This document shows, piece by piece, positions 13,587 through 34,531 of a stretch of 64,000 nucleotides of DNA; within the stretch, counting starts at the first letter, position 1; each line of letters begins with the position of its first letter. Origin of the DNA: Candidatus Multivoradales bacterium (GTDB taxonomy: Bacteria > Acidobacteriota > Thermoanaerobaculia > Multivoradales > J023); the NCBI GenBank assembly GCA_965248925.1, contig CBDFLE010000006.1:4128001-4192000 (forward strand). Reading direction: 5' to 3'. Under the pieces are notes generated by a model that saw only the letters and a list, made by a program, of their open reading frames with translations, was not told where the DNA came from and did not search any database. The translations under genes were made by a program, and so were the position numbers.

Positions 13587-16500
13587 CTAATGCAGAGCCA
13601 CCTTGATGCGGGGCTCTCCCTGGGCGAGCACAGTCGCCATCCAGGATCGCCCGTCGGGGGACCGCGCCTCGACCGTCCATAGGCCCGGCGGCAGGCCGTC
13701 GATCACCCCGACCCCGGCGCGAATCTTCCAGGCGTCGCGCAAGGCGCCACCCTCGGCCAGAGTCTCGACACGTCGCCCATCGGCGCCGACGACGACCAAG
13801 GCAGCGAGCTGATCCGAGCTTGCCAGATCCTCGACCGAGACTTCTAAGCGAGAGCCGGGAATCAGCTGGACCTCGACCGGAGGTCCCGGCACCGAGGCGG
13901 TGATCGTCGTCAGGCTGGCGCCCGGGGCACCGATCGCCACCTGCCATTCTCCCGCCGGCACGGTGGCCAGTTGGCAACGACCCTGGCTATCGAGAGCGCG
14001 GGATTGTTGCAACACCTGGCCGGTCGTGGCATGGGTCAAACGCGCGCTAAGCCATGCCGGTGGCCCACCCACTGCCCGCACCAAGAGCTGCAAGCCGCGG
14101 GTCGCGGCGAGCTCGATCCGGAGATCTTCGAGCTCCTGTCCGGCGACCACCTCGATCTGGGCGCTGTGCTCGGCAAATCCTTCCTTGTGCACGGTCAGCT
14201 GGTAGTGACCGGCAGGCACCCGCGGAATGAAGAAGGAACCGTCCTCGTGGCTCCCGTGGGTCACCAGGAAAGGAAACTCCCGAGGCCTGGTGACTACTCG
14301 GCGAAGCGCCAGCAAGGCGGCGCTGAGAGGGGTACCGCTCTGACTTTCGACCACCGCTCCGCTCAGACTCCCGGTCTCGAGGTCGATGGTCATCGTGCGG
14401 TCGGCGTCGAGCAGGATCTCCTCGTTGTGCACCAAGCGCTCGTGGCCGTGTCGCAGGCTCAAGAGATAGGCCCCGGGGCGCAGGTCCTCGATCTCGAAAC
14501 GACCGTCTTGGTCGGTCACCACCCGGCGGGCAACCGCCAGCCTGTTGCCTTGCAGGGTCACGTCGACCGCCGCCAGTCCGTCTTCGCCGCGGATCACCTG
14601 GCCATCCAGGTTGAGCCGGCGCTCGAACTCGAGGTCCCGTTCGATGTCCGAGTCGCCGGCACCGAGCAGCAGGCGCGCCTGGGTGTGCCGTGCTCCATCG
14701 CCCCTTGTCGCCCGCAACAGCCAGCGGCCCGGCGCCAGATTCTGCACTTCGAAGTTGCCGTCGAAATCGACGGTCCCCGATTTCGCCCGACCGGCACCAG
14801 TCTCGGCCTCGATTCGCACCCCGCTGAGCTCGGTGGGCTCGAGACCCAAGACCCGGCCATGGACTCGAACACCACGATCAAAGATCAGCTGCAAGGCGCT
14901 GCCGTCGGTATCAGGAACCACGACCGGCGCTTCGAGCCGGGCATCGGCAAGACCGACCAGCTGGCCCTCGAGTTGGTACTCGCCGTCGTCGACCGAGGGA
15001 AAGGAAAACCTGCCCCCAGAGTCGGAGGAGGTCGAGTAGAACCGTCCACCGGAAGCCGGCACGCGCAAGGTGACGTAGGCTCCGGAGAGTAGTCGGCCTG
15101 CTGCATCTACCGCTTCGCCGAGCACCTCCTGCCCTTTTTCGAGGGTGAGCGTCAGGGTGTTCTCGCCTTCCCCTACCTCGATTTCCTGTTGGATTTCCCC
15201 ATAATCAGGATGCTTCGCGATCGCGGTCTGCTCTCCCGTCGGCACGCCGGCGACCCGGTACTGTCCCTGCGCGTCGGCGGAGGTTCCGGCGTCGGCGACC
15301 TGGACATGACTCCGTGGCACCGGCTGTCCATCGCTGTCGATGACCTCGCCGGTAACCACCGCACCGGCAGACAGCTGGTAGTCGACATCCTCGACCACGG
15401 CACCTTCCGCGATCGTTAGCCGGCGCTCCTGCGGAGACACATAGCCCGCGGCTCGGATCCAAATCCTGAGCTCCCCGGCGGGGATTCCGAGCACTTCGTA
15501 GAACCCTTCTGGATCGGTTTCGGTGCCTTCGAGCCGGGGTCCGGATCGCATCGCTCGGCCGCCGGTCGCCGGCAAGGGCTCGGAATGAGCCATCGCCACT
15601 CGCGCGCCAGCTACCGGTTCACCGTCGCCAGAGGTCACCCGGCCGCGAATCGCCGCCGCCGGACGGAGCACGACCTCGATCGCGCTGCCACCGGCGCGCA
15701 CGGCGGTGAAATGCTGGTCGAGATAGCCCTCCTTGGCGACCCGGAGTCGCAACACGCGGTCTCTGCCAAGGTCGTCGAAGCGTAGGGTTCCGTCCTCACC
15801 GGTGAGAGCCTGGCGCAAGAGTTTCTCCCGCCATTCCTCGACCGGGACCAGCAGTTGGACACGGGCACCAGCGACCGGCAGGTTAACCAGGGTCGTGACT
15901 CGAACCGCCACGCTGGCCCCTTGAGGCAACACCAGATCTCCCAGCGCCGTATTCTTGCCCGCGACGATTCGAACTCGCTGCAAACGCACTGGTGCGTAAC
16001 CCGACGAGCGCAGCTCGACCTCGCACAGTCCGGGTGGCAGACCCTCGACCAGCACTTCGCCAGCCGGCGACGACTCGGCCGTCCAAGTGCGGGCGCCGCG
16101 CTCCTCCCGCGACGGCCAGACGCTCACCGCCACCGCCGCGACCGGCGCACCGTCCGAATCCAGAACTCTGCCGGTCAAGGTGGCTAGAGCGGTCAGCCTC
16201 AACCGCGGCTCGCCTGCCGCGCCGACTGTCCACGACAGCGCCGCGGTGCCCAGAGTCCGATGCTCGGCCAGCAGCTCGTAGGTGCGGCCCTCGGCCAGGC
16301 CTTCCAGACTAAAGCGGCCGTCAGCCTCGCTGAGGGTTCGCGCGGCCGCCGAGTCGGTCCGGTAGAAGGTCGTTGCTCGTTCGCTCTCCCGGGCTGACAC
16401 GGCAACTCCCGCGACCTCTCCCCCGGTGGCATCGAGCACCCGGCCGAGCACCGGGCCCGCTGCCGGCAGGCTCAAGCGGGTCGGCTCGCCAGCCGCTGAC

Positions 16501-17606
16501 TTCAAGGGCCAGATCCGGCCGGGAACGAAGCCGCTGGCCTGAGCCTGGACAAAGGTCGGCACGCCGGCGAGGTGGGCGAGCTCGAATCGGCCCTCGCGAT
16601 CGGTCAGCACCCAGCGTCCGGGGTCGACGCCGGCCCACACCAACGCACCAGCTACCGGCGTCTCGCCAGCGATCGCCAAGACCTGCCCGTGGACCGACTG
16701 TCGGTGAGGAATCCTCAGCCGATGCAACCCGCTACCGAGCTGACTGACCGTGATGACCAATGCCGACGACGAGCCGTCGGGCGCCTGCAGCCACAGCGGC
16801 TGTTCTGGTGCCGTGCCAAGGTCAGGCAGCGACACCAAGCCGGCGGCATCGGAGATCGCCAGCGGCTGCTCCCAACCTTCGGCCCAGACGACGACATTCG
16901 GCATCGCCTCGCCCGCTGCCGCGGTGACCGCCAGCCGCTCCCGGCGCTCCGCGGCACGAACTTCGAGGACCGCAGGGTCCTGAGCAGCTGGTAGCTCGTA
17001 GCTTGCCAGAGCTCGATCCGTGAGCTGCAACTCGAGCTCTTCTCCCGGCCGTCGCTGAAGCAGAATCTCTCCCCGCCGATCGGACCGGTAATGCCGCGGG
17101 GCCGGCCTCCAACCAGGCGCCGCGGCCGATTTGACCGAAGAGCGCGCCGCGACCCTGCGACCGCTCACCGGCTCGCCGGCCGAGTCGACCAGCAGGACGG
17201 AGGCAATCTCTGATCTGGAAAGCACCAGCGGCGGCAACTCGACCGATCGGGTCTCGGCGAAAGGCCCCAGCCGCATTGCCAAGAAGCCTGCCGCGGAGAC
17301 CGTGACCGTCAGCAATGTTGGAGTGCCGATCTCGACGGCGAAACGCCCCGCGGAGTCGGTAGCCACTTGCAACCGCTGGTCCATCGCGGCCCCCTCGACG
17401 CCTCGCCGGCCCTGCTCGGCGCTGGTCGGCAAGTCGGCAAGGCTCACCCGCGCCCCGGCCAGCGGACGGCCCAGCCCATCTAGCACCGTCCCAGAGAGGA
17501 TCCAGAGTTGCTTGGCGGCGGCGGCGGGCGGCAGCCCCATCCATGCCAGATAGCCCACCATCAGCAGGGCATTGATCCTTCGCAGTGTTACAGGCCTTCG
17601 AAACAT
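13587..17606 (-). CDS. Large secreted carboxypeptidase-regulatory-like (beta-sandwich) repeat protein
   Basis: Likely start ATG 17606 (MFRRPV.., signal peptide ending AAAAK); about 12 repeats of G.V.D..G.PV.GA.V...TD..GRF. Confidence 0.85.
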   Translation of the reverse strand: MFRRPVTLRRINALLMVGYLAWMGLPPAAAAKQLWILSGTVLDGLGRPLAGARVSLADLPTSAEQGRRGVEGAAMDQRLQVATDSAGRFAVEIGTPTLLTVTVSAAGFLAMRLGPFAETRSVELPPLVLSRSEIASVLLVDSAGEPVSGRRVAARSSVKSAAAPGWRPAPRHYRSDRRGEILLQRRPGEELELQLTDRALASYELPAAQDPAVLEVRAAERRERLAVTAAAGEAMPNVVVWAEGWEQPLAISDAAGLVSLPDLGTAPEQPLWLQAPDGSSSALVITVSQLGSGLHRLRIPHRQSVHGQVLAIAGETPVAGALVWAGVDPGRWVLTDREGRFELAHLAGVPTFVQAQASGFVPGRIWPLKSAAGEPTRLSLPAAGPVLGRVLDATGGEVAGVAVSARESERATTFYRTDSAAARTLSEADGRFSLEGLAEGRTYELLAEHRTLGTAALSWTVGAAGEPRLRLTALATLTGRVLDSDGAPVAAVAVSVWPSREERGARTWTAESSPAGEVLVEGLPPGLCEVELRSSGYAPVRLQRVRIVAGKNTALGDLVLPQGASVAVRVTTLVNLPVAGARVQLLVPVEEWREKLLRQALTGEDGTLRFDDLGRDRVLRLRVAKEGYLDQHFTAVRAGGSAIEVVLRPAAAIRGRVTSGDGEPVAGARVAMAHSEPLPATGGRAMRSGPRLEGTETDPEGFYEVLGIPAGELRIWIRAAGYVSPQERRLTIAEGAVVEDVDYQLSAGAVVTGEVIDSDGQPVPRSHVQVADAGTSADAQGQYRVAGVPTGEQTAIAKHPDYGEIQQEIEVGEGENTLTLTLEKGQEVLGEAVDAAGRLLSGAYVTLRVPASGGRFYSTSSDSGGRFSFPSVDDGEYQLEGQLVGLADARLEAPVVVPDTDGSALQLIFDRGVRVHGRVLGLEPTELSGVRIEAETGAGRAKSGTVDFDGNFEVQNLAPGRWLLRATRGDGARHTQARLLLGAGDSDIERDLEFERRLNLDGQVIRGEDGLAAVDVTLQGNRLAVARRVVTDQDGRFEIEDLRPGAYLLSLRHGHERLVHNEEILLDADRTMTIDLETGSLSGAVVESQSGTPLSAALLALRRVVTRPREFPFLVTHGSHEDGSFFIPRVPAGHYQLTVHKEGFAEHSAQIEVVAGQELEDLRIELAATRGLQLLVRAVGGPPAWLSARLTHATTGQVLQQSRALDSQGRCQLATVPAGEWQVAIGAPGASLTTITASVPGPPVEVQLIPGSRLEVSVEDLASSDQLAALVVVGADGRRVETLAEGGALRDAWKIRAGVGVIDGLPPGLWTVEARSPDGRSWMATVLAQGEPRIKVALH

Positions 17607-17771
17607 GCTCGGTGGCTCCTCTACGCAGGGGTTCGGTAGCCAGCGCCCGGGCCAGCCGGCGGCGGCCGGCACCTGGACGCCAGTCACGGTCTCACGGCAG
17701 CAGGGTCTCACAAGAAACGGCGGTTCCCACTGGGTTGACGGCCTCGGTGTCGGTGGCCGTTCTAGAAAGGA

Positions 17772-17860
17772 GACGCGGAAGGAGTGCCGGACGGGGGACA
17801 AACGAGGGTGGCCGATTTCCGCTAACGACTTTGGCCCACCTGCATCGACTTGCCCGCGTC
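17772..17860. promoter_or_regulatory. Divergent pair of putative ECF promoters
   Basis: Minus strand TGTCCC(17800-17795)-N17-CGCGTC(17777-17772); plus strand TGGCCC(17832)-N17-CGCGTC(17855). Repeated in every tandem unit. Confidence 0.6.
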
Positions 17861-17921
17861 ATCCATACAAGAAACGCGAGTTCTCGTTCCAAGAGGGCTG
17901 CTCAACAACGGAGGCAACGAA

Positions 17922-18434
17922 ATGACACGGAAAAACATCTTGCTACTCGGTCTGCTAACCGCCGCGCTGACGATGCCGGCGACCCCTTCCTGGGGGGCGA
18001 CTTGCTTCGGCTCCAACGCCACGATTCTCGGCACCGGCGGCGCTGACTTGATCTACGGCACCTCCGGGGCCGACGTGATCGATGCCAAAGGTGGCAACGA
18101 CGTGATCGATGCCAAAGGTGGCAACGACAAGATCTGTGGCCGGTCGGGCAACGACAAGATCACCGCCGGGTCGGGCCACGACTCGGTCGAGGGCGGCAAT
18201 GGCAATGACCAGATCGATGGTGACAGCGGCAGGGACGATGTGCGAGGAAACGCCGGGGACGACACTGTTGATGGCGGTATCGGACATGACGACGTTTGGG
18301 GGTACGGCGGCAGGGACTTTGTTCTCGGTGGCGGCGGCACCAACTACGTTCACGGCGGCAACGGCATCGACCGGTCGCTCCTGGGTCAGGGCAGCCAGAC
18401 TTTCGTCTCGGTCGAAGTCCTCGGAAGCCCATAG
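17922..18434 (+). CDS. Small secreted Ca-binding protein with RTX/hemolysin-type GGxGxD repeats, copy 1
   Basis: RBS GGAGG, ATG 17922; signal peptide ending PSWG; TCFG..ATILGT..ICG Cys pair; nonapeptide repeats. Confidence 0.85.
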   Translation: MTRKNILLLGLLTAALTMPATPSWGATCFGSNATILGTGGADLIYGTSGADVIDAKGGNDVIDAKGGNDKICGRSGNDKITAGSGHDSVEGGNGNDQIDGDSGRDDVRGNAGDDTVDGGIGHDDVWGYGGRDFVLGGGGTNYVHGGNGIDRSLLGQGSQTFVSVEVLGSP

Positions 18435-19039
18435 CTCGCCAGAGCTCGATCCGTGAGCTGCAACTCGAGCTCTTCTCCCGGCCGTCGCTGAAGCAGAATC
18501 TCTCCCCGCCGATCGGACCGGTAATGCCGCGGGGCCGGCCTCCAACCAGGCGCCGCGGCCGATTTGACCGAAGAGCGCGCCGCGACCCTGCGACCGCTCA
18601 CCGGCTCGCCGGCCGAGTCGACCAGCAGGACGGAGGCAATCTCTGATCTGGAAAGCACCAGCGGCGGCAACTCGACCGATCGGGTCTCGGCGAAAGGCCC
18701 CAGCCGCATTGCCAAGAAGCCTGCCGCGGAGACCGTGACCGTCAGCAATGTTGGAGTGCCGATCTCGACGGCGAAACGCCCCGCGGAGTCGGTAGCCACT
18801 TGCAACCGCGAGTCCATCGCGGCCCCCTCGACGCCTCGCCGGCCCTGCTCGGCGCTGGTCGGCAAGTCGGCAAGGCTCACCCGCGCCCCGGCCAGCGGAC
18901 GGCCCAGCCCATCTAGCACCGTCCCGGAGAGGATCCAGAGTTGCTTGGCGGCGGCGGCGGGCGGCAGCCCCATCCATGCCAGATAGCCCACTATCAGCAG
19001 GGCATTGATCCTTCGCAGTGTTACAGGCCTTCGAAACAT
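18432..19039 (-). pseudogene. 3'-truncated duplicate of the carboxypeptidase-repeat gene
   Basis: First ~200 codons near-identical to 17606-16999, then runs antisense into Ca-binding copy 1. Confidence 0.85.
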
Positions 19040-19354
19040 GCTCGGTGGCTCCTCTACGCAGGGGTTCGGTAGCCAGCGCCCGGGCCAGCCGGCGGCGGCC
19101 GGCACCTGGACGCCAGTCACGGTCTCACGGCAGCAGGGTCTCACAAGAAACGGCGGTTCCCACTGGGTTGACGGCCTCGGTGTCGGTGGCCGTTCTAGAA
19201 AGGAGACGCGGAAGGAGTGCCGGACGGGGGACAAACGAGGGTGGCCGATTTCCGCTAACGACTTTGGCCCACCTGCATCGACTTGCCCGCGTCATCCATA
19301 CAAGAAACGCGAGCTCTCGTTCCAAGAGGGCTGCTCAACAACGGAGGCAACGAA

Positions 19355-19867
19355 ATGACACGGAAAAACATCTTGCTACTCGGTCTGCTAACCGCCGCGC
19401 TGACGATGCCGGCGACCCCTTCCTGGGGGGCGACTTGCTTCGGCTCCAACGCCACGATTCTCGGCACCGGCGGCGCTGACTTGATCTACGGCACCTCCGG
19501 GGCCGACGTGATCGATGCCAAAGGTGGCAACGACGTGATCGATGCCAAAGGTGGCAACGACAAGATCTGTGGCCGGTCGGGCAACGACAAGATCACCGCC
19601 GGGTCGGGCCACGACTCGGTCGAGGGCGGCAATGGCAATGACCAGATCGATGGTGACAGCGGCAGGGACGATGTGCGAGGAAACGCCGGGGACGACACTG
19701 TTGATGGCGGTATCGGACATGACGACGTTTGGGGGTACGGCGGCAGGGACTTTGTTCTCGGTGGCGCCGGCATCAACTACGTTCACGGCGGCAACGGCAT
19801 CGACCGGTCGCTCCTGGGTCAGGGCAACCAGACTTTCGTCTCGGTCGAAGTCCTCGGAAGCCCATAG
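19355..19867 (+). CDS. Secreted Ca-binding RTX-repeat protein, copy 2
   Basis: Copy 1 + 1433; 3 amino-acid differences near the C-terminus. Confidence 0.85.
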   Translation: MTRKNILLLGLLTAALTMPATPSWGATCFGSNATILGTGGADLIYGTSGADVIDAKGGNDVIDAKGGNDKICGRSGNDKITAGSGHDSVEGGNGNDQIDGDSGRDDVRGNAGDDTVDGGIGHDDVWGYGGRDFVLGGAGINYVHGGNGIDRSLLGQGNQTFVSVEVLGSP

Positions 19868-20472
19868 CTCGCCAGAGCTCGATCCGTGAGCTGCAACTCG
19901 AGCTCTTCTCCCGGCCGTCGCTGAAGCAGAATCTCTCCCCGCCGATCGGACCGGTAATGCCGCGGGGCCGGCCTCCAACCAGGCGCCGCGGCCGATTTGA
20001 CCGAAGAGCGCGCCGCGACCCTGCGACCGCTCACCGGCTCGCCGGCCGAGTCGACCAGCAGGACGGAGGCAATCTCTGATCTGGAAAGCACCAGCGGCGG
20101 CAACTCGACCGATCGGGTCTCGGCGAAAGGCCCCAGCCGCATTGCCAAGAAGCCTGCCGCGGAGACCGTGACCGTCAGCAATGTTGGAGTGCCGATCTCG
20201 ACGGCGAAACGCCCCGCGGAGTCGGTAGCCACTTGCAACCGCGAGTCCATCGCGGCCCCCTCGACGCCTCGCCGGCCCTGCTCGGCGCTGGTCGGCAAGT
20301 CGGCAAGGCTCACCCGCGCCCCGGCCAGCGGACGGCCCAGCCCATCTAGCACCGTCCCAGAGAGGATCCAGAGTTGCTTGGCGGCGGCGGCGGGCGGCAG
20401 CCCCATCCATGCCAGATAGCCCACCATCAGCAGGGCATTGATCCTTCGCAGTGTTACAGGCCTTCGAAACAT
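19865..20472 (-). pseudogene. Second 3'-truncated duplicate of the carboxypeptidase-repeat gene
   Basis: Same as 18432-19039, shifted by 1433. Confidence 0.85.
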
Positions 20473-20745
20473 GCTCGGTGGCTCCTCTACGCAGGGGTTC
20501 GGTAGCCAGCGCCCGGGCCAGCCGGCGGCGGCTGGCACCTGGACGCCAGTCACAGTCTCACGGCAGCAGGGTCTCACAAGAAACGGCTCTAGAAAGGGCA
20601 CGCGGAAGGAGTGACGGACGGGGGACAAAGGAGGGTGCCCGATTTCCGCCAACGATCTTGGCCCACTTCTGGCGAGTTGTCCGCGTCATCCCTCAGGAAA
20701 TCCGAACGCTCTTTCTAGGAGTGGTTCCACAACGGAGGAAACGAG

Positions 20746-21267
20746 ATGACATGGAAAAGCACCCTTCTACTCGGTCTGATAGCCGCCGCGCTGACGATGC
20801 CGGCGACCCCTTCCTGGGGGGCGACTTGCTTCGGCTCCAACGCTACGATTCTCGGCACCGGCGGCGCTGACTTGATCTACGGCACCTCCGGGGCCGACGT
20901 GATCGATGCCGAAGGTGGCAACGACGTGATCGATGCCAAAGCTGGCAACGACAAGATCTGTGGCCGGTCGGGCAACGACAAGATCACCGCCGGGTCGGGC
21001 CACGACTCGGTCGAGGGCGGCAATGGCTATGACCAGATCGCTGGTGGCAGCGGCCGTGACGATGTGCGAGGAAACGCCGGGGACGACACTGTTGATGGCG
21101 GTATCGGACATGACGACGTTTGGGGGTACGGCGGCAACGACTTTGTTCTCGGTGGCGACGGCACCAACCTCGTCCACGGCGGAAACGGCTACGACTATTC
21201 GACGACACTGGGTCCGGGCAACCAGACCTTCGTCTCGATCGAAGTTCTCTTTCCGCGGCCGCTGTAG
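20746..21267 (+). CDS. Secreted Ca-binding RTX-repeat protein, copy 3
   Basis: 173 aa, MTWKSTLLLG signal peptide variant, GGxGxD repeats. Confidence 0.85.
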   Translation: MTWKSTLLLGLIAAALTMPATPSWGATCFGSNATILGTGGADLIYGTSGADVIDAEGGNDVIDAKAGNDKICGRSGNDKITAGSGHDSVEGGNGYDQIAGGSGRDDVRGNAGDDTVDGGIGHDDVWGYGGNDFVLGGDGTNLVHGGNGYDYSTTLGPGNQTFVSIEVLFPRPL

Positions 21268-21346: not shown

Positions 21347-21847
21347 CTACTGCCCGGGTCCGCCTCCCTCTCGTAGCTGGCGTTGCAGGAAAGCCCGGGC
21401 GCAACGCCATTCCCGCTTAACGGTCCGACCGCTCACCCCCAAGGCCGAAGCGGTCTCCTCGACCGACAGACCAGCGAAGTAGCGCAGCTCGACGACCTTG
21501 CCCGCGCGCCGATCCCGGGCCTCCAGCTCGCACAGGGCGGCGTCGAGTTCCAACCAATCGGTAGGGCTGGCGCTGGCCACGTTTGCGGCCATGATGAGCG
21601 GTAGCACCGGCGCCCCTTCGCCACGTTTGAGGCTGACCTTACGGCGAAAATGATCGACCAGGATGCGGCGCATGATGCGGGCGGCGATGGCAAAGAAATG
21701 CTCTCAATTCTGCCAATCTGAACGCCCCTGCTTGACCAACCGAAGGTAGGCTTCGTTGACCAGCTCGGTGGGCCGCAGGGACGGGTTCGCCGGGTCGCTG
21801 GAGAGTCGTCGAGCGGCAATGGCATGAAGTGCCGGATAGATCATCCG
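21347..21847 (-). pseudogene. 5'-truncated ECF sigma copy 1 with CGA>TGA nonsense (108-aa sigma4-containing ORF 21347-21673 remains)
   Basis: Near-identical to 25124-25624 apart from the missing first ~27 codons, the stop after WQN and a few SNPs. Confidence 0.85.
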
Positions 21848-22004
21848 GCGGAAAGGAGACGCGGAAGGAGTGCCGGACGGGGGACAAAGGAGGGTGCCCG
21901 ATTTCCGCCAACGATCTTGGCCCACTTCTGGCGAGTTGTCCGCGTCATCCCTCAGGAAATCCGAACGCTCTTTCTAGGAGTGGTTCCACAACGGAGGAAA
22001 CGAG

Positions 22005-25123: not shown

Positions 25124-25705
25124 CTAGGCCCTGGGTCCGCCTCCCTCTCGTAGCTGGCGTTGCAGGAAAGCCCGGGCGCAACGCCATTCCCGCTTAACGG
25201 TCCGACCGCTCACCCCCAAAGCCGAAGCGGTCTCCTCGACCGACAGACCAGCGAAGTAGCGCAGCTCGACGACCTTGCCCGCGCGCCGATCCCGGGCCTC
25301 CAGCTCGCACAGGGCGGCGTCGAGTTCTAACCAATCGGTAGGGCTGGCGCTGGCCACGTTTGCGGCCATGATGAGCGGTAGCACCGGCGCCCCTTCACCA
25401 CGTTTGAGGCTGACCTTACGGCGAAAATGATCGACCAGGATGCGGCGCATGATGCGGGCGGCGATGGCAAAGAAATGCTCTCGATTCTGCCAATCTGAAC
25501 GCCCCTGCTTGACCAATCGAAGGTAGGCTTCGTTGACCAGCTCGGTGGGCTGCAGGGACGGGTTCGCCGGGTCGCTGGAGAGTCGTCGAGCGGCAATGGA
25601 ATGAAGTGCCGGATAGATCATCCGCATCAGATCTCGTTCGGCACCCGCGTCTCCCCCTTGCCATTTCTGAAGCAGTGCGGTGATGTCGGCGGAAGGTGTG
25701 CTCAT
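25124..25705 (-). CDS. ECF-type sigma factor, TIGR02999 (Ser/Thr-kinase-associated) family
   Basis: DITALLQKWQGGD, SLQPTELVNEAYLRL, WQNREHFFAIAARIMRRILVD, VVELRYFAGLSVEETA..RTVKREW. Confidence 0.93.
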   Translation of the reverse strand: MSTPSADITALLQKWQGGDAGAERDLMRMIYPALHSIAARRLSSDPANPSLQPTELVNEAYLRLVKQGRSDWQNREHFFAIAARIMRRILVDHFRRKVSLKRGEGAPVLPLIMAANVASASPTDWLELDAALCELEARDRRAGKVVELRYFAGLSVEETASALGVSGRTVKREWRCARAFLQRQLREGGGPRA

Positions 25706-25727: not shown

Positions 25728-28397
25728 TCAACCCTTGCTCATCCATTCTTCGAGATCCGCCGCCAGCGACTCGCGGCCGGTCGTCTGGTAGAGCTCGACC
25801 AGCCAGCGGGCGGCCCTGAAACGAAACCGATTCGACAGCTTACCATCGCGCGACAAGACCTCGTGACAAGGGATGAGCAAATTCTCCGCCTCCTCCACCC
25901 GACCCTGGCGCAAGAAGGCTCCACCAAGGTCAGCCTTGGCAACACAGGCATTGCGCCCGTCGGCGCCGCCGCGAGAGTGACGGCTAAAGATGGCGATGGC
26001 GCCGCGAAGATGATCCTCGGCTTCGCCGGGGCGGGCCAGCTCGATCAGCGTCGCTCCCAACCCGGCCTTGAAGTAGCCCATGCGCAGATTATCCTCCCCG
26101 CCGCCGCTCAGCTGGAGTTCGATGGCGCGGCGAAAATAGCCTTCGGCCTCGGCGAAGCCTTGGTTGGAAAAAAGCACGCCACCGATGTTGTTGACTTTGG
26201 TGGCCAGCTCGGGATTCTCGGAGCCCAACAGACCTTCCTGGATACGCAGAGCGCGCTGATAGTTGGCCAGCGCCCGGACACCGTCTCCCAGATCCCGATA
26301 GAGACTTCCCAAGGTGGTCAGCGCATCGGCCACCATGGGGTGCTCTTCGCCATAGAGTTCTTGGGCCAGCTGGGCCGCCTGCCGGCCCAGCACCAGGCCC
26401 TCCTCGGCACGCCCTTCACGGCCCGCCAGGCGGGCCAGGCGGCGCAGGGCCCGCGCCGCGGTCGGATGCCGTGCCGCATCGAGGGAGTCTAGCAGCGCCA
26501 GGCTCTGGCGAAAAAGCTCCGAGGCCTCGCCGCGGTCGCCTTCGAGCTCCAGGGTTTCCCCCAAGGCCACCAAACCACTGGCGTGCTCCAAGCTCTGGGC
26601 ACCAAAATAGGCGATCGTCTCTTCGACCGCCCGACGATGTAGAACGATGCCGGCCGGACGGTTGCTACGGTCGAACTCGATATCTCCCAACAGCCGGAGG
26701 GTATCGGCGGAGCCGGCGCTCGCGGTGGCGAGAAATCCCCGCAGTGCGACTTGCGCGGTTTCGTGGGCGCCGTCCAGATCGCCCTGTACGTACTGCAAGC
26801 TCGCCAGCTCCTTTTGGGTCAGAGCGAGGCTCTCGCTGGCCGGGCCCAAAGTCTGTTCTTTGAGGATCAGCGCCTCTTCCAACGCTCCACTGGCCTGCGA
26901 AAACAGTCCCAACGCTGCTTGCACCGAGCCGATGGTATGCAGCAGGTCCGCTTTGGCGACCAGATCGTCGTCCAGACTATTGCGGATCGAACGCACGCCG
27001 GCCTCGAGAATCTCCCGAGCGGTGACATTGGCTCCCCGGGTGCGAGCCGGGTCCGCTTGCAGGAAGGCATCTTTGAGCAGGGTGCTGACCCGCTCTGCCC
27101 GGCCTTGTTGCTGACGGGCCAGATCCCGCTCCCGTGCCGCCTCCCGAGCCAGGAACAAGGAGGTGATGGCAAAGGCGAGCACCAGCGCCAGAAACGCCAC
27201 CGAGGCACCCACCGCCAGTAGGTGTCGGCGCATGAATTTGCCGATGCGGTAGCGCCAAGTCGGCGGCCTGGCGGCGATTGGCAGACCTCGACGGCAACGG
27301 TCGAGATCGTCGACCCAACGATCCACCGACCCGTAGCGGGCCGCTGGATCCGACCGCAAGGCCTTGGCCAGAACAATCTCCAGGTCCCCTGCCAGGGCTC
27401 GCCGCAGCCCCTGGACCGTCGTATTTCGGCACTCGGCTGCCGCCGCCAGCTCCGCCGAGGCGCCGCGCCGGCGGCCCGGCAGCCAGCGACCGATCGGCCA
27501 AGAGCCCGGTTCCCCGCGTGTTGCGGTAGCTTGAGAGTCGGACTGCTCCGGCGGTCGTCCACTGAGCAGTTCATCTAGGAGCACCGCCAGCGAGTAGACG
27601 TCCGAAGCCGTCGAGATAGGAGCCCCCGCCCGTTGTTCGGGGCTGGCGTAGCGCGGGGTGAGAAAGGAGTCTCGGGTCTTGGTTTGAGGATCCGCCGTAC
27701 TCCGCAAGAGCTTGGCAATGCCGAAGTCGAGGAGCTTGGGCTCGCCGTCTTCGGTGACCAGGATATTGCCTGGCTTGAGGTCTCGATGGACCACCAATCT
27801 GCGGTGGGCGAAGCTCACCGCAGAGCACACTTTGAAAAACAGCTCGAGGCGTGCCTCGATGGAGAGGCGGCGGCGGTCGCAGGCCGCGGTGATGGCCTCG
27901 CCCTCGACATAATCCATCACCAAGTAGGGCAGGCCGTCAGCCGTCGTACCGCCATCGAGGAGACGCGCGATGTTGGGGTGGTCCAGCATCGCCAGGATCT
28001 GCCGCTCCTGACGAAAACGATCGAGGGCCAGGGCGCTGTCGAGACCCAGAGGCAGGATCTTGATGGCGACTCGCTGGTCGTACTCCTGGTCCGCCCGCTC
28101 GGCCAGGTACACCACTCCCATGCCACCTCGGCCGAGCCGACTTTTCAGCCGGTAAGGACCCAGCTGCCGGTCGATCCAGGATTCGTCTTGCAGCTCCGCG
28201 AGGACGGTCGGGAGCCGCGCGGCATTCTCGGTCGGCGACAGCAACTCCAGGTCGTTGCGGAGCAGGGAATCGACTTCCCTGGCCAGCCAAGGATCTTTCT
28301 CGGCGACCTCCACGAGGCGCTCGGCGCGGCTTTCCTCGTCCGCTTCTGAAAGTTCCAGAAAGAGTTCCTTGGCTCGCTGCCAGCTTTTTTCGACCAT
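25728..28397 (-). CDS. Hanks-type Ser/Thr protein kinase with TM helix and TPR repeats
   Basis: LGRGGMGVVY, VAIK, HRDLKPGN, LLDFGIAK, TPRYASPEQ; TM segment near residue 400; TPR C-terminus. Confidence 0.95.
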   Translation of the reverse strand: MVEKSWQRAKELFLELSEADEESRAERLVEVAEKDPWLAREVDSLLRNDLELLSPTENAARLPTVLAELQDESWIDRQLGPYRLKSRLGRGGMGVVYLAERADQEYDQRVAIKILPLGLDSALALDRFRQERQILAMLDHPNIARLLDGGTTADGLPYLVMDYVEGEAITAACDRRRLSIEARLELFFKVCSAVSFAHRRLVVHRDLKPGNILVTEDGEPKLLDFGIAKLLRSTADPQTKTRDSFLTPRYASPEQRAGAPISTASDVYSLAVLLDELLSGRPPEQSDSQATATRGEPGSWPIGRWLPGRRRGASAELAAAAECRNTTVQGLRRALAGDLEIVLAKALRSDPAARYGSVDRWVDDLDRCRRGLPIAARPPTWRYRIGKFMRRHLLAVGASVAFLALVLAFAITSLFLAREAARERDLARQQQGRAERVSTLLKDAFLQADPARTRGANVTAREILEAGVRSIRNSLDDDLVAKADLLHTIGSVQAALGLFSQASGALEEALILKEQTLGPASESLALTQKELASLQYVQGDLDGAHETAQVALRGFLATASAGSADTLRLLGDIEFDRSNRPAGIVLHRRAVEETIAYFGAQSLEHASGLVALGETLELEGDRGEASELFRQSLALLDSLDAARHPTAARALRRLARLAGREGRAEEGLVLGRQAAQLAQELYGEEHPMVADALTTLGSLYRDLGDGVRALANYQRALRIQEGLLGSENPELATKVNNIGGVLFSNQGFAEAEGYFRRAIELQLSGGGEDNLRMGYFKAGLGATLIELARPGEAEDHLRGAIAIFSRHSRGGADGRNACVAKADLGGAFLRQGRVEEAENLLIPCHEVLSRDGKLSNRFRFRAARWLVELYQTTGRESLAADLEEWMSKG

Positions 28398-28495
28398 CGT
28401 GCGTCACCTTCCAAAATTTCGAATAGTTCTTGAGTTAGTATGAGACAGGGGGTTTCGCCAGCGAATGACGAATGAGGGGCTATTTCTTCTTCTCT

Positions 28496-28524
28496 TGTCC
28501 CATTTCCATGGGTTCTTATGCGTC
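28496..28524 (+). promoter_or_regulatory. Putative ECF promoter
   Basis: TGTCCC-N17-TGCGTC upstream of ATG 28591. Confidence 0.5.
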
Positions 28525-28590
28525 AGTGACTGAGCGAGAGCTGAAACAAGGGGTCGAGAACTGATCATCAAGAGCAAAGGAGAACCAAAC

Positions 28591-29283
28591 ATGTCACGCC
28601 TCCACCATAGAACCCTTTGGCTGGCCGTCCTGATCTGGGCGTTGGCGCCGTCGAACTCTCAATCCGAGAATACCGTGCGACCCTGGGATTGCGATGTCAT
28701 GGGCTCGGATCATTACTTTCTGGACCGCTTCGCGAGCCATGAGGGCACCGTCGGCGTGGTGGAGAAAGACTCCGAGTGCCGGGCCCACTCCCCGGACGGC
28801 TGGGTAGAGATCGATCTTGCCCAACAGCCCGCCCAGGTGGTCGTTGACTTCGATATCGACCTCACGGAGCTGACGATTTCGGACCGCGAGCAGTTGCAGG
28901 TTTTTCAATTCGTCCGCTTGGACGGCAGCCCTATCGCCTCCGTCTGGATCCGCCGCCTGGGTCTTGATGACTGGGTGAATCTACAGTGGAGTGACGACCA
29001 GAGCAACGGCACGCTGCGCTACCTCGCCAAGCTACGCCGAGGTGAGCAACGGCTCAGCGTGACCTGGACCGCGACCCATCCCGAGGTCGTCGGCGGGCTC
29101 AAGCTCAGCTTGGCGGGGCAAGTGATCGCCGAGTTGAGCGGACTGATCATGGAGGACTACAGCACTCCGGTTCGAGCCCTAGTCGGCCTGATCGGCGGAG
29201 ATTCCGGGATCGAGGGCGAGCTCGTCTTCCGGCCGGTAGGCTTCTCCTGGAGGTTCGCACCGGCTTCGAGCCTTGTTCCTTAG
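28591..29283 (+). CDS. Secreted hypothetical protein (beta-rich)
   Basis: RBS AAGGAG, signal peptide, followed by a terminator; no family recognised. Confidence 0.7.
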   Translation: MSRLHHRTLWLAVLIWALAPSNSQSENTVRPWDCDVMGSDHYFLDRFASHEGTVGVVEKDSECRAHSPDGWVEIDLAQQPAQVVVDFDIDLTELTISDREQLQVFQFVRLDGSPIASVWIRRLGLDDWVNLQWSDDQSNGTLRYLAKLRRGEQRLSVTWTATHPEVVGGLKLSLAGQVIAELSGLIMEDYSTPVRALVGLIGGDSGIEGELVFRPVGFSWRFAPASSLVP

Positions 29284-29320
29284 GGTCCTCCTCAATCTGG
29301 CCGCCGCCGGAGCGACCAGC

Positions 29321-29345
29321 AAGGCCCTTCTTCGGAGGGGCCTTT
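29321..29345 (+). terminator. Intrinsic terminator
   Basis: AAGGCCCTTC-TTCG-GAGGGGCCTT-T. Confidence 0.75.
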
Positions 29346-29388
29346 GTCGTATCTGCAGCCTGCCCGAGCGCCTCTCACCCCTCCCTGT

Positions 29389-29416
29389 TGTCACTTCGTG
29401 GCTGCTTTTGCGCGTC
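29389..29416 (+). promoter_or_regulatory. Putative ECF promoter of the Rhs gene
   Basis: TGTCAC-N16-CGCGTC between the terminator and the RBS GGAGG. Confidence 0.4.
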
Positions 29417-29494
29417 AGCTCTTAAGACGACTACCACCGCGGGGTCAGCCGGCAAGCTCGCCGAGCGACGGCGGCGCCGCGAAGAAGGAGGCTA

Positions 29495-32400
29495 TTGATG
29501 AGACTCGGAACAATTCTGCAACTACTGGCGATGATCTGCTGCCTGCTGGCGGCGCCGAGCCATGCCATGCACCCTGCCCACCCCGAGGGCTACTCACCGG
29601 AAAAGATGTATCAGTTGGGCCTGCCGGACCAGGTGGACCTGTTCGGCGGCTCGTTGTCGATACGGATCCCCATCGGCCCACTCACCCTGACCTATGGCTC
29701 CACCATCTGGACTTATGAATACGAATGGGACGAGCAGGCCAACGACCTGCGAATCGTCGTCAAGCCGAACAAGAAGAACACCGGCGGCCTGGGCTGGACT
29801 TTGGGCTGGGGCGAGGTCTACCGCCCCGGCCACTGGTACAACCCGGGCACCCAGTGGGTGTACGTCGATCAAAACGGCGGCCGGCACGTTTTCTACCAAC
29901 AGCTGCACAAGGACGAGGACGACGGCGATGCCGACGTGCTCTACACCCGGGACAGCAGCTACCTGCGACTGCGGCGCTTTCCGATCAATGGCTCCAGCAC
30001 CATCTACAAGGTCTGGATCGAGCACCCGGACGGCTCGACCCGCAGCTTCGTGGCGCCGACCGGACAGGGTGGCACCGCCTTCAACCTCACCGCCGGATGG
30101 AGCGCCTTCGCCGCCGAAGGCGACCCCGACTTCAGCGTCTCCTACGTGCGGGGCACCGGCGCCGACGGCTTGGAGGAGTGGATTCTCACCGACCGCTGGG
30201 GCCGGGTGACGAGGGTTCACTCCACTAACGAGTACACCAACCTGATCAACACCGTGACCTCCGTCGAGCTGCCGCCGGCGATCCAGGGGGGGCCGGCGAT
30301 CGTCTATGGCTTCTCCTATGTCCAGGCTTCCCACAAGCGCAGCTGCAAGGACACCCACTCCTCGACCGCGGCGACGGTCCAGGTTCCCTACCTCGAACGC
30401 ATCGACCTGCCGGACGGCACCTCCTGGAAGATGAAAGAGGGCGGCGCTCTGCTCTACGAGACTCAGTGCACTCCGACCGACGACGCGGCCGGAGTGCTCA
30501 AGGGATTGATCCTGCCCAGCGGCGCCAAGGTGGAGTGGGAATGGCAGCAAGTCAAATTCCCGGCGGTGGCCGGGGAAGAGATACAGCACAACGCCGCCGG
30601 GGTGAAATTTCGCCGGCTCTACGACAAGAACGGCCAGCTGGCGGGAGAGTGGCGTTACAAATTCAACCAGGTGATGAACGCCGGCGGCACGGACCAACAC
30701 GAGATGCGCTCGCATCTGGTGCAGCCCACCGGCGATTGCACCAAGAGCTACTACGACGCTCGATTCAAAATCTCTCCGGCGTTGAAATTGGGTTGGCGCT
30801 ACGGCCTCCCCGGGGCCTCCTCAGACACCCTCGACGTCAACGGGGAGGAGCGCTACATGGCGAAGAAGATCTTCGCCTCCAACAACGGCGACGGCTCGTG
30901 CGCCGGAACGTTGCTGCGCTCGACCTACGTCGACCATCGACGGGACGTACCGCCGACCAACGCCGACAACCCGGGAGATTGGCGAAACCTCAACCGCGGC
31001 CTCTACGCCAGCCACACCATCTACCACGACGATGGCGACCGCTGGACCGACCAAAAGAGCACTTCCTTCGATGGCCTCGGCCACTTTCGCCGGACCAAGA
31101 CCTGGGGCAACTTCTGGGGTGGCTCGAGCAACGAAGAATACCGGCAGACCTTCACCGACTACACCGACGCCATCGGCTTCTACCCGAGTTCGGGCTACGT
31201 GCCGCCGGCCGCTACCGATCCCTGGGTGCTGGGGAAGTGGTCGTACCTGGAGGTGAAAGAGCCGGACTCCCAAGGAGAGTGGCGCAGCCGAATCGAGCAG
31301 GAGGTGGACTCGGCCACCGGGGCGGTGACCTGCAGCCGCGTCCTGAAGTCGGATCTGAGCCGCTCCGCCCAAGACATCCTGGCCCGCTTCGACCGCGATT
31401 CGCTTGGCCAGGTGACCGACGCCAAGATCTACGGCGGCGACTTGCAGCCCATCCCGACCAGCGGCACCTGCGGATTCGTGGTGGCGGGTCCCGAGTACTG
31501 GACCCACCACGAGTACGAGCGGGGAGCGCGGGTGCGAACCGTGCAACGCACCAGCGCAGGAGTCGACGCCCCCTTCTTCTCCTACGACGTGGACTTGGAT
31601 CCGGAGACCGGCAAGGTACTAGTGGCGCGGGATCCTGCCGGGCAGGCGACCACCTACAGCTACGACACCCTCGGCCGATTGATTGGGGCGGCGCCGGCAG
31701 AGGGCGCTCAGGTGAGCTACGTCTACTCTTCTCCCAGCGCCAGCAGCGACGCCAGGGTGGCGACCAAGGTTCGCCTGGGTCTCAGCGTGCTGAGTGATTC
31801 GGAGAAGGTCTACGACGAATTCGGCCGTTTGAGCCTCACCCGCCGCAAGATGCCCGGAGGCTCGTGGTCGAGCCAGGAAACTCAGTACAACGCTCGGGGG
31901 TGGAAGACCTCTGTTTCGGTGCTCGGTGACGACCCCCGCAAAAGGACCCGCTACCTCGCCTTCGACGCCTTCGGCCGGCCGGGGGTGATCCGGCCGCCGC
32001 AAGGAGCGTCCCACGACTTGCTGATCACCTACGAAGGTATCCGCCGAACGACCCGTCAGGTCAAAGTGGCGACCGCCGCCGGCGAGGTCTATCAGCCGGT
32101 GATTCAGGAATCCGACCGCTATGGCCGCCTGCGTACTCTGCTGGAGGCTTCCGGCGCTGGCGGCGTGAGCATTCCCACTTCCTACTTCTACGATGTCGGC
32201 AGCAGGATGACCAGCCTGTCGACGCCTTCGGCCCCCGCCATCGGTCCACCGCAGGGCACTGTCGTGGTGCAAGATCGCCTGTTCAACTACGACAACCGTG
32301 GCTTCCTGTTGTCCGAAACGCACCCCGAGAAGGGCCTTTCGGGGAATGGCGCCGTGCTGTACGAGGATTACGATTCCTCGGGGCTCGCCCACCGGGTGAT

Positions 32401-34531
32401 TGACGGCCCCGATGATCTCACCAAGGAATATGATTTCCTGGGCCGCCTAACCGCCGTCCGGGATCAAAGTCATGGCGGTCGATTGTTGTTGGAAGCGGAG
32501 TTCGACGGAGCGTCCGGGGCGGGTCTCGGGCGACCGTGGAAATCGACTCGCCACAACTGGCTCGACTTGCCCTGGGACGGCCCCGGCGAGGTCGATGCCT
32601 GGGTGCGGCAGACTCTCAGCTTCGAGGGGCCTAACGGTGCGCTGTCTATGACCGAAATGAAGGTCGCCCTCGAAGGGGTCAAGAGCTTCGAAACCCTCTA
32701 TGACTACAACGAGCAGGGGTTGGTCTCGTCCCTGCGTTATCCAGAGTGCGTGGCCGGCACCTGTGCCGGCGCCGGAGCGCCGGCGCGAACCATCGCCGCG
32801 ACCTACGACCAGGGCCTGCTGAAGGAAATACCGGGTTGGACCGGTGGCCCCATGACCTACCATCCGAGCGGTCTTTGGGCCACCATTCCCCACGCCAACG
32901 GAGTCACCGACGAGCTGGTAGCCGACCCCGTTCGCCCTGGCCGGCCGCTACAGCTCAAAGTACTCGCGACGGACGGCACCGAACTCTGGAACAAAGGAGC
33001 CTACAGCTACGACGGCGCTGGCAACGTCGAAGCCATTGGCACGAGCTCCTTCGCGTACGACGAGGTCAGCCGGTTGGTCGAGGCTGCGGTGGAGGGCTAC
33101 GAGCAGCGCTTCACCTACGACACCTTTGCCAATTTGACCTCGTTCCTCACCAAACCACCCCAGGGACCTACTCACCAATTGCAGATTCCCGTCGATCAGG
33201 CGTCCAACCGACTCACCTCGGCGAGCTACGACAGCGCCGGCAATACGACCAATTGGAGCGCCAACCACTACGAGTGGGATGCGCTGGGGAGAATGACGTC
33301 CCTCAACGACCGGTTCTTCTATCTCTATGACAGCGGTGGCGAGCGGGCCGTGGCCATCGACTGGACCGGCACCTTGGACGCTAGGACGATGACTTTCACG
33401 CTCCGAGGTCTGGCGGGCGAGGTGTTGAGCCAGTTCGAAGTCGCCGGGGACGACAGCAGCGCCAATTGGCAACACCGCCGCGATTGGATCTTGGCTGGCG
33501 GACGGCTGCTGGCGACAGCGGATGCCGAAGGCACAGTGGCTCACCTCCACCTCGATCATTTGGGAAGCGTTCGCCTACGCACTGACGAGAACGGCTTCGA
33601 GCTCAGCCGACACGATTACCTACCCTATGGTGAGGAGATCACCCTGCCGGCGGATGGACTGCTCAAATTCACCGGCCACGAGCGCGACGGGGACGCCGGC
33701 CATGACTTCATGCATGCCCGCTACTACACCTGGGACCTGGGGCGTTTTCTCAGCGTCGATCCGGGTCGAGGACAGGCGGGAAGCCCTCACACACTGAATC
33801 TATATTCCTATTCCAAAGGAAACCCGCTTCAATTCGTCGACCCGGACGGCAGGAGCTTCAGGACTTTCTTGATAGAGGTTGGCGCCCTCGGAGGTTCCTT
33901 CTATCTCGGCGGCAAAGTCTTGCTTGCCGAACAAGCTGGTATGGCTGCCGCCGGGGTGGCCGGCGGCGGCGCTGCGGCCTTTGTCGGTGCCGGTATTTCG
34001 GGGTACGCGATCGGAACGGAAATCAATGGCGCTATGACCGCTTTCACCAGTCAGCCCGATTGGGCCCTGAGAACCTCTGGCCTACTGAATCCCGGGTTAG
34101 CCTGGCTATATCGGGCACTGACAGTAGCTGAGAATCCTCTTGAGTGGCAGGCAGGGCATGTGCAGGTCGATGACAAGGGTCGCCTAGTCTTCATCGATGG
34201 TGCCAACCCTCAAACCGAGTGCCCGGCAGGCCGATTTTGTGCGGATATCGAAGTTACTGCGGAGGGGGCTGAAAAGAGCCTTTCGGAGGAAATCGCGGAA
34301 AAGCACGAGGCCACCAAGCACCCAGACTCGTTGCTGCTGCCGACAGAACCCATTGGCGGCCAGGAAGTCTCGGAGTTCTGGATTGAGCTGCTCAACTTTC
34401 TGGACGTGAGCGGCTCGAGATCCTTCGCCAGCACTTACTTGCACGGTGGCCTTCTTCGGATTCAGATGGATGGCGGCTGGGGAGATTTCACCTGCGCGAC
34501 GGATATCACCTGCGATCCTTACGCCAAGTAA
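29495..34531 (+). CDS. RHS/YD-repeat protein with Sec signal peptide, RHS-associated core and 226-aa C-terminal extension
   Basis: YD repeats; HLDHLGSVR, KFTGHERD, MHARYY...GRFLSVDP, NLYSY..GNPLQFVDPDG. Confidence 0.93.
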   Translation: MMRLGTILQLLAMICCLLAAPSHAMHPAHPEGYSPEKMYQLGLPDQVDLFGGSLSIRIPIGPLTLTYGSTIWTYEYEWDEQANDLRIVVKPNKKNTGGLGWTLGWGEVYRPGHWYNPGTQWVYVDQNGGRHVFYQQLHKDEDDGDADVLYTRDSSYLRLRRFPINGSSTIYKVWIEHPDGSTRSFVAPTGQGGTAFNLTAGWSAFAAEGDPDFSVSYVRGTGADGLEEWILTDRWGRVTRVHSTNEYTNLINTVTSVELPPAIQGGPAIVYGFSYVQASHKRSCKDTHSSTAATVQVPYLERIDLPDGTSWKMKEGGALLYETQCTPTDDAAGVLKGLILPSGAKVEWEWQQVKFPAVAGEEIQHNAAGVKFRRLYDKNGQLAGEWRYKFNQVMNAGGTDQHEMRSHLVQPTGDCTKSYYDARFKISPALKLGWRYGLPGASSDTLDVNGEERYMAKKIFASNNGDGSCAGTLLRSTYVDHRRDVPPTNADNPGDWRNLNRGLYASHTIYHDDGDRWTDQKSTSFDGLGHFRRTKTWGNFWGGSSNEEYRQTFTDYTDAIGFYPSSGYVPPAATDPWVLGKWSYLEVKEPDSQGEWRSRIEQEVDSATGAVTCSRVLKSDLSRSAQDILARFDRDSLGQVTDAKIYGGDLQPIPTSGTCGFVVAGPEYWTHHEYERGARVRTVQRTSAGVDAPFFSYDVDLDPETGKVLVARDPAGQATTYSYDTLGRLIGAAPAEGAQVSYVYSSPSASSDARVATKVRLGLSVLSDSEKVYDEFGRLSLTRRKMPGGSWSSQETQYNARGWKTSVSVLGDDPRKRTRYLAFDAFGRPGVIRPPQGASHDLLITYEGIRRTTRQVKVATAAGEVYQPVIQESDRYGRLRTLLEASGAGGVSIPTSYFYDVGSRMTSLSTPSAPAIGPPQGTVVVQDRLFNYDNRGFLLSETHPEKGLSGNGAVLYEDYDSSGLAHRVIDGPDDLTKEYDFLGRLTAVRDQSHGGRLLLEAEFDGASGAGLGRPWKSTRHNWLDLPWDGPGEVDAWVRQTLSFEGPNGALSMTEMKVALEGVKSFETLYDYNEQGLVSSLRYPECVAGTCAGAGAPARTIAATYDQGLLKEIPGWTGGPMTYHPSGLWATIPHANGVTDELVADPVRPGRPLQLKVLATDGTELWNKGAYSYDGAGNVEAIGTSSFAYDEVSRLVEAAVEGYEQRFTYDTFANLTSFLTKPPQGPTHQLQIPVDQASNRLTSASYDSAGNTTNWSANHYEWDALGRMTSLNDRFFYLYDSGGERAVAIDWTGTLDARTMTFTLRGLAGEVLSQFEVAGDDSSANWQHRRDWILAGGRLLATADAEGTVAHLHLDHLGSVRLRTDENGFELSRHDYLPYGEEITLPADGLLKFTGHERDGDAGHDFMHARYYTWDLGRFLSVDPGRGQAGSPHTLNLYSYSKGNPLQFVDPDGRSFRTFLIEVGALGGSFYLGGKVLLAEQAGMAAAGVAGGGAAAFVGAGISGYAIGTEINGAMTAFTSQPDWALRTSGLLNPGLAWLYRALTVAENPLEWQAGHVQVDDKGRLVFIDGANPQTECPAGRFCADIEVTAEGAEKSLSEEIAEKHEATKHPDSLLLPTEPIGGQEVSEFWIELLNFLDVSGSRSFASTYLHGGLLRIQMDGGWGDFTCATDITCDPYAK

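Follow-up and report, generated by a model that had tools for sequence, protein, structure and literature searches.

A shared promoter-like motif around a kinase-linked ECF sigma factor gene of Candidatus Multivoradales: a possible local regulon

We analysed a 64-kb stretch of DNA (~63% G+C; hereafter the window) from a Candidatus Multivoradales bacterium of the Acidobacteriota (contig CBDFLE010000006.1, positions 4,128,001 to 4,192,000), in which a gene pair coding for a Hanks-type Ser/Thr kinase and an extracytoplasmic function (ECF) sigma factor is flanked on both sides by copies of a bipartite motif, TG[GT]C[CA]C-N16/17-[CT]GCGTC. Scanning the whole window gave 13 matches to this motif (eight on the plus strand and five on the minus strand), every one of them within 17772-29416, and these reduce to five independent sites, all non-coding and each oriented towards the gene downstream. 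We tentatively propose that the five sites are ECF-type promoters forming a small local regulon of the adjacent, kinase-activated sigma factor. Since the same promoter-like motif stands in front of all the target genes, these would probably be switched on together.

ECF sigma factors of the kinase-activated kind abound in Acidobacteriota, Planctomycetota and their relatives and, to our knowledge, only two kinase-activated ECF pairs have been studied, both of them proteobacterial. The present locus offers five candidate promoters beside the regulator pair, so that a direct test would be cheap, and such a test would yield the first defined promoter for this branch of the sigma factor family. One of the presumed target genes has moreover been amplified, which hints at what the system is selected for.

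Motif sites flanking the kinase-sigma factor pair

The regulator pair, the five sites and the genes that they precede are laid out as follows, in the order of the plus strand.

13587..17606, minus strand: large repeat-protein gene, encoding a secreted protein of 1339 amino acids with ~10 CarboxypepD_reg repeats
17772..17800, minus strand: motif site 1, TGTCCC-N17-CGCGTC, placed 165 nt before the large-gene start codon
17832..17860, plus strand: motif site 2 (RTX type A), TGGCCC-N17-CGCGTC, 61 nt upstream of ATG 17922, with an identical copy at 19265-19293
17922..18434, plus strand: RTX type A gene, copy 1, 170 amino acids, PF00353 at 99 bits; copy 2 at 19355-19867
20659..20687, plus strand: motif site 3 (RTX type B), TGGCCC-N17-CGCGTC, 58 nt upstream of ATG 20746, with copies on the plus strand of the other type B units at 21918-21946, 23177-23205 and 24436-24464
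20746..21267, plus strand: RTX type B gene, 173 amino acids, PF00353; further intact copies at 22005-22526, 23264-23785 and 24523-25044
25124..25705, minus strand: ECF sigma factor gene, 193 amino acids, TIGR02999 / Pfam Sigma70_ECF, region 2.2 reading LQPTELV
25728..28397, minus strand: Hanks-type Ser/Thr kinase gene, 889 amino acids, first gene of the kinase-sigma operon
28496..28524, plus strand: motif site 4, TGTCCC-N17-TGCGTC, 66 nt upstream of ATG 28591 of the secreted-protein gene
28591..29283, plus strand: orphan secreted-protein gene, 230 amino acids, with a signal peptide and matching no known family
29389..29416, plus strand: motif site 5, TGTCAC-N16-CGCGTC, 81 nt upstream of ATG 29498 of the Rhs gene
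29498..34531, plus strand: Rhs/YD-repeat gene, 1677 amino acids, with a signal peptide, PF05593 and an unclassified C-terminal domain of ~225 amino acids

A preliminary description of this stretch had reported the motif upstream of four unrelated genes, and every coordinate that it gave is correct; the gene identities that it proposed, including the TIGR02999 ECF factor and the kinase, are likewise borne out by Pfam and TIGR matches and by an alignment with PknS (see below). Apart from the motif, the four kinds of presumed target gene and their upstream regions are without mutual sequence similarity. The distance from site to start codon is 58-81 nt, and 165 nt for the large gene. In this last case the site is not adjacent to the start codon because the likely start is ATG 17606: the longest open frame extends over 13587-17801 (1404 amino acids), and ATG 17606 is preceded by a GAGGAG ribosome-binding site and opens a signal-peptide-like N terminus.

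Beyond the two hexamers, a T precedes the -35 element in 5/5 sites and an A follows the -10 element in 4/5, giving the five-site consensus T-TG[G/T]CCC-N17-CGCGTC-A. Scored with a position-weight matrix derived from the five, each site reaches 22.5 or above; the rest of the window stays at 13.8 or below, the best of these matches being a decayed duplicate of one of the sites. Bipartite, with a fixed spacer of 16-17 nt, a CGT(C) core in the -10 element and an orientation towards the gene, the sites have the form of ECF promoters, as had been suggested before: a CGTC -10 and a TGTC-type -35 are recorded for several ECF groups, and 'GTC in -35' for ECF43 (PMC7826278 supplement).

Site 3 is homologous to site 2, with a diverged spacer. 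Between RTX types A and B, mismatches amount to 0/12 in the hexamers, 7/17 in the spacer and 18/61 in the 5' untranslated region (Fisher p 0.012-0.015), in agreement with the earlier remark that the hexamers were kept while the spacer diverged. The motif also emerges from a test that was blind to it, in which five oriented non-coding regions around the kinase-sigma pair were searched for shared words of 6+6 letters with a gap of 16-17 and at most one mismatch. The top shared word was TGTCCC+CGCGTC, found in 4/5 regions, and four regions were reached by only one of 3000 dinucleotide shuffles. The region lacking the word is that upstream of the kinase gene, where neither the matrix scan nor a local search found the motif; because the kinase-sigma operon has no motif site, control of the pair would be post-translational and not autoregulatory.

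The sigma factor matches TIGR02999 at 203.5 bits (cut-off 126.15) and PF07638 (Sigma70_ECF) at 173.5 bits (cut-off 21.1). Its region 2.2 reads QPTE in place of the canonical ECF DAED, with one acidic residue (Glu) kept; the consensus of the kinase-activated ECF family in this region is QTTA. For comparison we used 80 homologous sigma loci from genome contigs (1.23 Mb), whose sigma factors are 39-50% identical to this one. The position of Thr54 (LQPTELV) is occupied by Ser or Thr in 79/80 of these relatives, with QPTE in 43/80. A replaced DAED with a phospho-acceptor Thr is the defining mark of the phosphorylation-activated ECF43 factors: EcfP has STTA in region 2.2, that Thr being the phosphorylated residue (PMC8999054), and EcfK has QATE, with T51 as the phosphorylated residue (PMC13147305), to which Thr54 corresponds. 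The kinase gene adjoins the sigma gene on the same strand, its stop codon 22 nt upstream of the sigma start, and domain searches revealed no anti-sigma domain in the genes neighbouring the pair. A kinase homologue is present in 69/80 of the related loci and lies within 600 bp in 47/80. As for gene order, the kinase is downstream on the same strand in 37 relatives and comes first, as here, in a single one.

The kinase itself comprises an N-terminal extension (residues 1-75), a kinase domain (82-290), a membrane helix (~393-417, the single hydrophobic window of the protein) and a tetratricopeptide repeat (TPR) domain (~430-889, with TPR family matches over ~606-760), the placement of the TPR domain on the outer side being predicted from hydropathy only. 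Residues 5-367 align with PknS(1-364) of Xanthomonas citri in PDB entry 9EED (E 3.8e-49), the entry named for PknS in PMC13147305. The N-terminal extension (window 28173-28397) is conserved in 20 aligned sigma-linked kinases, its counterpart in the alignment being the N terminus of PknS that is left unmodelled in 9EED; residues 1-75 may be a docking part for the sigma factor.

Three points are inferred: promoter function of the sites, their recognition by the adjacent sigma factor, and activation of that factor by phosphorylation, for which EcfP/PknT and EcfK/PknS provide the precedent (PMC8999054, PMC13147305). In such a scheme, the membrane kinase would sense something outside the cytoplasm via its TPR domain and phosphorylate Thr54 of the sigma factor (QPTE, region 2.2), and perhaps Ser/Thr residues of the linker too, thereby supplying the negative charge needed for binding to core RNA polymerase. 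The holoenzyme would then start transcription a few bases downstream of CGCGTC, driving the genes for the large repeat protein, the amplified small beta-roll proteins, the orphan secreted protein and the Sec-dependent Rhs protein. The preliminary description had likewise proposed that the kinase phosphorylates the ECF Thr and so co-induces the targets: the position of Thr54 and the PknS-like kinase speak for the first half of that proposal, and the second half, the link from sigma factor to sites, is drawn from proximity alone.

A tandem array built from the RTX gene

The six beta-roll proteins, which had been counted as separate targets, turn out to represent one target gene in a tandem amplification. 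The six RTX genes, all intact, derive from a single gene by amplification in two overlapping tandem series, whose units lie head-to-tail, are 91-100% identical and truncate the flanking genes at each junction, the array being taken at face value from the contig sequence as assembled. Its parts are the following.

16990-18422, 18423-19855 and 19856-20591: type A units of 1433 bp, two full and a partial third
19039->18386 and 20472->19819, minus strand: two N-terminal fragments of the large protein, 217 amino acids each, created by the 1433-bp units
20592-21850, 21851-23109, 23110-24368 and 24369-25624: type B units of 1259 bp, four copies in tandem
20599..20627, minus strand: decayed copy of site 1, its -10 reading CGCGTG, preceding the second large-gene fragment, with a ~35 bp deletion in the leader
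21347..21886, minus strand: sigma-gene fragment fused to a copy of site 1 (21886-21858); further copies at 22606-23145 and 23865-24404

In each type A unit, the RTX gene and both promoter-like sites are accompanied by 616 nt from the 5' end of the large gene; in each type B unit, both sites and the type B gene come with 501 nt from the 3' end of the sigma gene. Because each unit carries both sites, gene fragments end up fused to the motif, and the extra minus-strand copies at 19233, 21886, 23145 and 24404 precede gene fragments, not genes. Both 217-residue fragments of the large protein follow a motif copy and converge with the preceding RTX gene, running into its 3' end. The fragment that precedes unit B1, the first of type B, is already without the -10 element (CGCGTG) and part of the leader.

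Three sigma-gene fragments stand directly behind a perfect motif copy, because the type B junction falls just downstream of the minus-strand CGCGTC. All three start at codon 28 and have S36A, Q52R and a stop at codon 75 in common, leaving a 46-codon open frame from Met29, which lies thirteen bases after the -10 element; this frame covers the region 2.2 helix with the presumed phospho-acceptor Thr. The simplest reading of the array is that the RTX gene would have been amplified recently, the fragments being debris.

Weighing the regulon against its alternatives

A number of results count against the proposed regulon, beginning with the sites themselves. As to a defined promoter for the kinase-linked sigma family, the literature searched gave just a one-line prediction for ECF43, 'GTC in -35 and CAG in -10' (PMC7826278 supplement). 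Set against this prediction, the five sites show GTC in the -35 element in 3/5 and GGC in 2/5, and CAG directly follows the -10 GTC in just 2/5. As counted by us, TGTCxxx and CGTC stand 1-2 nt further apart than they do in the ECF41 consensus, and the large gene has an unusually long leader of 165 nt. Since minus-strand copies in the array precede gene fragments, a motif upstream of an open frame can also be a by-product of duplication.

The relatives add further points of this kind. Around the 80 homologous sigma genes the strict motif occurs once in 1.23 Mb, versus 7.1 times in shuffles, and the enrichment near TIGR02999 ECF genes of relatives that the preliminary description had put forward as a check is thus absent from these loci. 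Matrix hits in the same loci are not enriched either (27, versus 39-58 in shuffles), and homologues of the RTX, secreted, Rhs and large proteins were found in 0/80. A search for motifs shared upstream of 78 related sigma genes brought AT-rich words of closely related loci to the top and nothing of the GTC/CGTC type. The promoter specificity of the relatives may differ, as they are only 39-50% identical. What ties the sites to this particular sigma factor is their position alone, and with no support from the relatives the regulon is a prediction, if a reasonable one.

Another sigma factor could read the sites, because promoters of the TGTC/CGTC type are used by other ECF groups: the PMC7826278 supplement gives TGTCACA / CGTC for ECF41, TGTCGAT / CGTC for ECF42 and TGTCAC or TGTCCCTTT for ECF250, and also records TGTC-type -35 elements for ECF37, 103, 131 and 288. 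The sites would then be real ECF-type promoters served by an ECF factor encoded elsewhere, and their proximity to the pair would be coincidental or due to a shared island. The differing -10 of the published ECF43 prediction ('CAG'), the absence of the motif upstream of the kinase-sigma operon and its absence near the sigma relatives all fit such a view, which we nevertheless consider unlikely. All the sites directly flank the kinase-sigma pair, on both sides, and no matching site precedes the one further ECF gene that the window contains (6873-7517). Furthermore, ECF factors controlled by phosphorylation need not autoregulate, and 'GTC in -35' is equally part of the ECF43 prediction.

Chance resemblance in GC-rich DNA, multiplied by tandem duplication, has to be weighed next. 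With at most one mismatch, TGTCCC-N17-CGCGTC occurs 13 times in the window, versus a mean of 1.02 in 100 shuffles (largest 4), so that the motif stands well above the background frequency by raw count. That count overstates the case, because most of the matches are tandem-duplication copies (9 of the 13 matches to the degenerate motif are recent duplicates): as independent sites the N17 form numbers 4 versus 1.02 expected, and the N16 form, with the Rhs site as its single match, 1 versus 0.92, so that chance alone should supply roughly one match in the window for either spacing. Allowing two mismatches gives 15 matches versus 14.2 expected, both added sites lying inside coding sequence. Because the independent counts are this low, significance depends on where the sites are placed.

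Placement was examined against real DNA by applying one automated pipeline both to the window, in which the array was reduced to a single copy, and to 55 loci around homologous sigma genes. The window has TGTCCC+CGCGTC in 4/8 regions; among the control loci, two of the 55 reach four regions, 40 reach three and 13 reach two. Both control loci at four do so with GC-rich low-complexity words and from more regions (18 and 10, versus 8 in the window). In an earlier multi-locus run, 0/55 loci reached four regions and 17/55 reached three, with the divergent region of the window excluded, since the longest open frames leave a gap of 48 nt there. A whole-window agnostic test (41 regions of 400 nt) was not significant: the motif falls outside the 15 best words and 40 shuffles score equally well, and it would not stand out without a prior focus on the neighbours of the sigma factor. 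Exact enumeration of 5-mer pairs over the window was swamped by a 14-bp tandem repeat and by RTX codon repeats, and is uninformative.

The agnostic test and the two control loci at four regions are what a chance origin can claim for itself, together with the duplicates. Against it stand the local motif-blind test, at one in 3000 shuffles, and the character of the sites, which are non-coding and correctly oriented, keep their hexamers while the spacer diverges and carry a T before the -35 element in 5/5. Taken together, the tests make chance unlikely without excluding it, and we rate this explanation as improbable.

It is also quite improbable that a transcription factor binds the words, or that they form some other cis-element, instead of serving as -35 and -10 elements, since the two blocks, for all that the first one varies (TGTCCC, TGGCCC, TGTCAC) and that the large-gene site lies 165 nt from the start codon, are neither palindromic nor direct repeats, unlike most operators, keep a fixed order, an orientation to the gene and a 16-17 nt spacing, resemble recorded ECF elements (PMC7826278 supplement) and lie in a region (13000-30000) where a crude E. 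coli-type consensus scan found no sigma-70-like promoter that could serve in their stead (0, versus 1.4 expected). A sigma-54 reading of TGGCCC was tried and rejected: the GC stands at the right distance in the type B spacer alone and not in type A.

The local regulon of the adjacent sigma factor is hence the reading that we retain, tentatively as stated. Its most far-reaching form would combine all the elements of the locus, with a non-proteobacterial phosphorylation-activated sigma factor of the PknS/EcfK type directly driving, via T-TGKCCC-N17-CGCGTC, a contiguous secreted cassette (an S-layer-like giant protein, beta-roll proteins, an orphan protein and a Sec-dependent Rhs toxin), with recent dosage selection on one target and with three promoter-fused minigenes of 46 codons that encode the region 2.1-2.2 helix and its phospho-acceptor Thr. 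We regard this whole as a very long shot. The minigene peptides, if expressed, might act as decoy kinase substrates or as competitors for the RNA polymerase clamp, which would amount to a built-in negative feedback.

Presumed target proteins, neighbouring genes and known systems

The large protein matches Pfam PF13620 at 352 bits in 10 stretches, and a similarity to the Kustd1514 S-layer glycoprotein family stays sub-threshold. In RTX type A, a Sec-type signal peptide is followed by calcium-binding nonapeptide repeats; GGxGxD nonapeptides are present in the RTX proteins, PF00353 is matched at 99 and 81 bits, and by sequence inspection only, the proteins have N-terminal Sec-type signal peptides and not a C-terminal type I signal. 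For the orphan secreted protein, a homologue search of the protein collection returned only the protein itself among 1369 candidates, and the predicted structure is too poor for a fold search (mean predicted local distance difference test score, pLDDT, 33.8). A weak lead in the atlas points to polysaccharide-lyase-like/Cip1 clusters (score 0.95; family on 46% of members).

The Rhs protein carries RHS repeats (PF05593) and an Rhs core (TIGR03696 at 1375-1452), followed by a variable C-terminal domain. This domain (33860-34531) opens after the core with a Gly/Ala-rich hydrophobic stretch; its ~225 amino acids gave no family match and no atlas look-alike scoring at least 0.9. Directly 3' of the Rhs gene, there is no immunity-like open frame of at least 40 amino acids on the same strand.

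Elsewhere in the window, scans for Rfam families and tRNAs returned zero matches, and several further features were observed.

471-5897, minus strand: type III-B CRISPR-Cas genes (Cmr3, Cas10/Cmr2, a RAMP protein and a Cas6-domain protein)
6758-6766: a lone CGCGTCAGG upstream of the second ECF gene, without a matching -35 element
6873-7517: second ECF sigma gene, followed by an anti-sigma-like gene at 7540-8298
13223-13249, minus strand: GAAC-N17-CGCGTC, ~100 nt upstream of a cupredoxin-like gene (11971-13119), a single instance with the same -10 word and a canonical ECF-like -35, which may belong to another sigma factor
34855-36600 and 55028-56419: two DUF4388 proteins, the first also matching an MshE-related cyclic-di-GMP-binding motif
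44438-45258 and 45499-45897: PIN-domain genes; a small gene upstream of the first overlaps it in a toxin-antitoxin-like arrangement
60348-60419: a 14-bp unit, GACCGTCACCGTAT, repeated 5.1 times at 96% identity between two minus-strand genes

With its head-to-tail units and truncating junctions, the RTX array resembles known tandem gene amplification arrays, from which it differs by having two unit types with the same RTX gene. The sites are the same kind of bipartite element as the target promoters of ECF41 and ECF42, and the Rhs site reads TGTCAC (PMC7826278 supplement). The two groups differ from the sigma factor described here in having C-terminal extensions of their own and no kinase, and none is encoded in the window; the spacing at this locus is also, as counted above, 1-2 nt longer.

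In EcfP/PknT of Vibrio parahaemolyticus (ECF43), phosphorylation of the Thr in region 2.2 restores RNA polymerase binding (PMC8999054). Our sigma factor is likewise without DAED in region 2.2 and has a Thr at the residue that is phosphorylated in EcfP, and its gene has no anti-sigma gene beside it; the STTA of EcfP has no acidic residue, in contrast to the Glu of QPTE. EcfK/PknS of Xanthomonas citri, also ECF43, regulates the type VI secretion cluster in which the pair lies (PMC13147305). The presumed targets at the present locus, which is known from its sequence alone, are instead Sec-secreted proteins and not a secretion machine. The kinase-first gene order and the low identity (39-50%) of the sigma factor to its best relatives are further differences. 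Several features are shared with EcfK/PknS: QATE compares with QPTE, the Thr being present and the neighbouring Glu kept (PMC13147305), the alignment with PknS spans the whole cytoplasmic part of the kinase and takes in the N-terminal extension of ~80 residues, the kinase is built with one membrane helix and a TPR domain, and in both cases the target genes, presumed ones here, adjoin the regulator pair.

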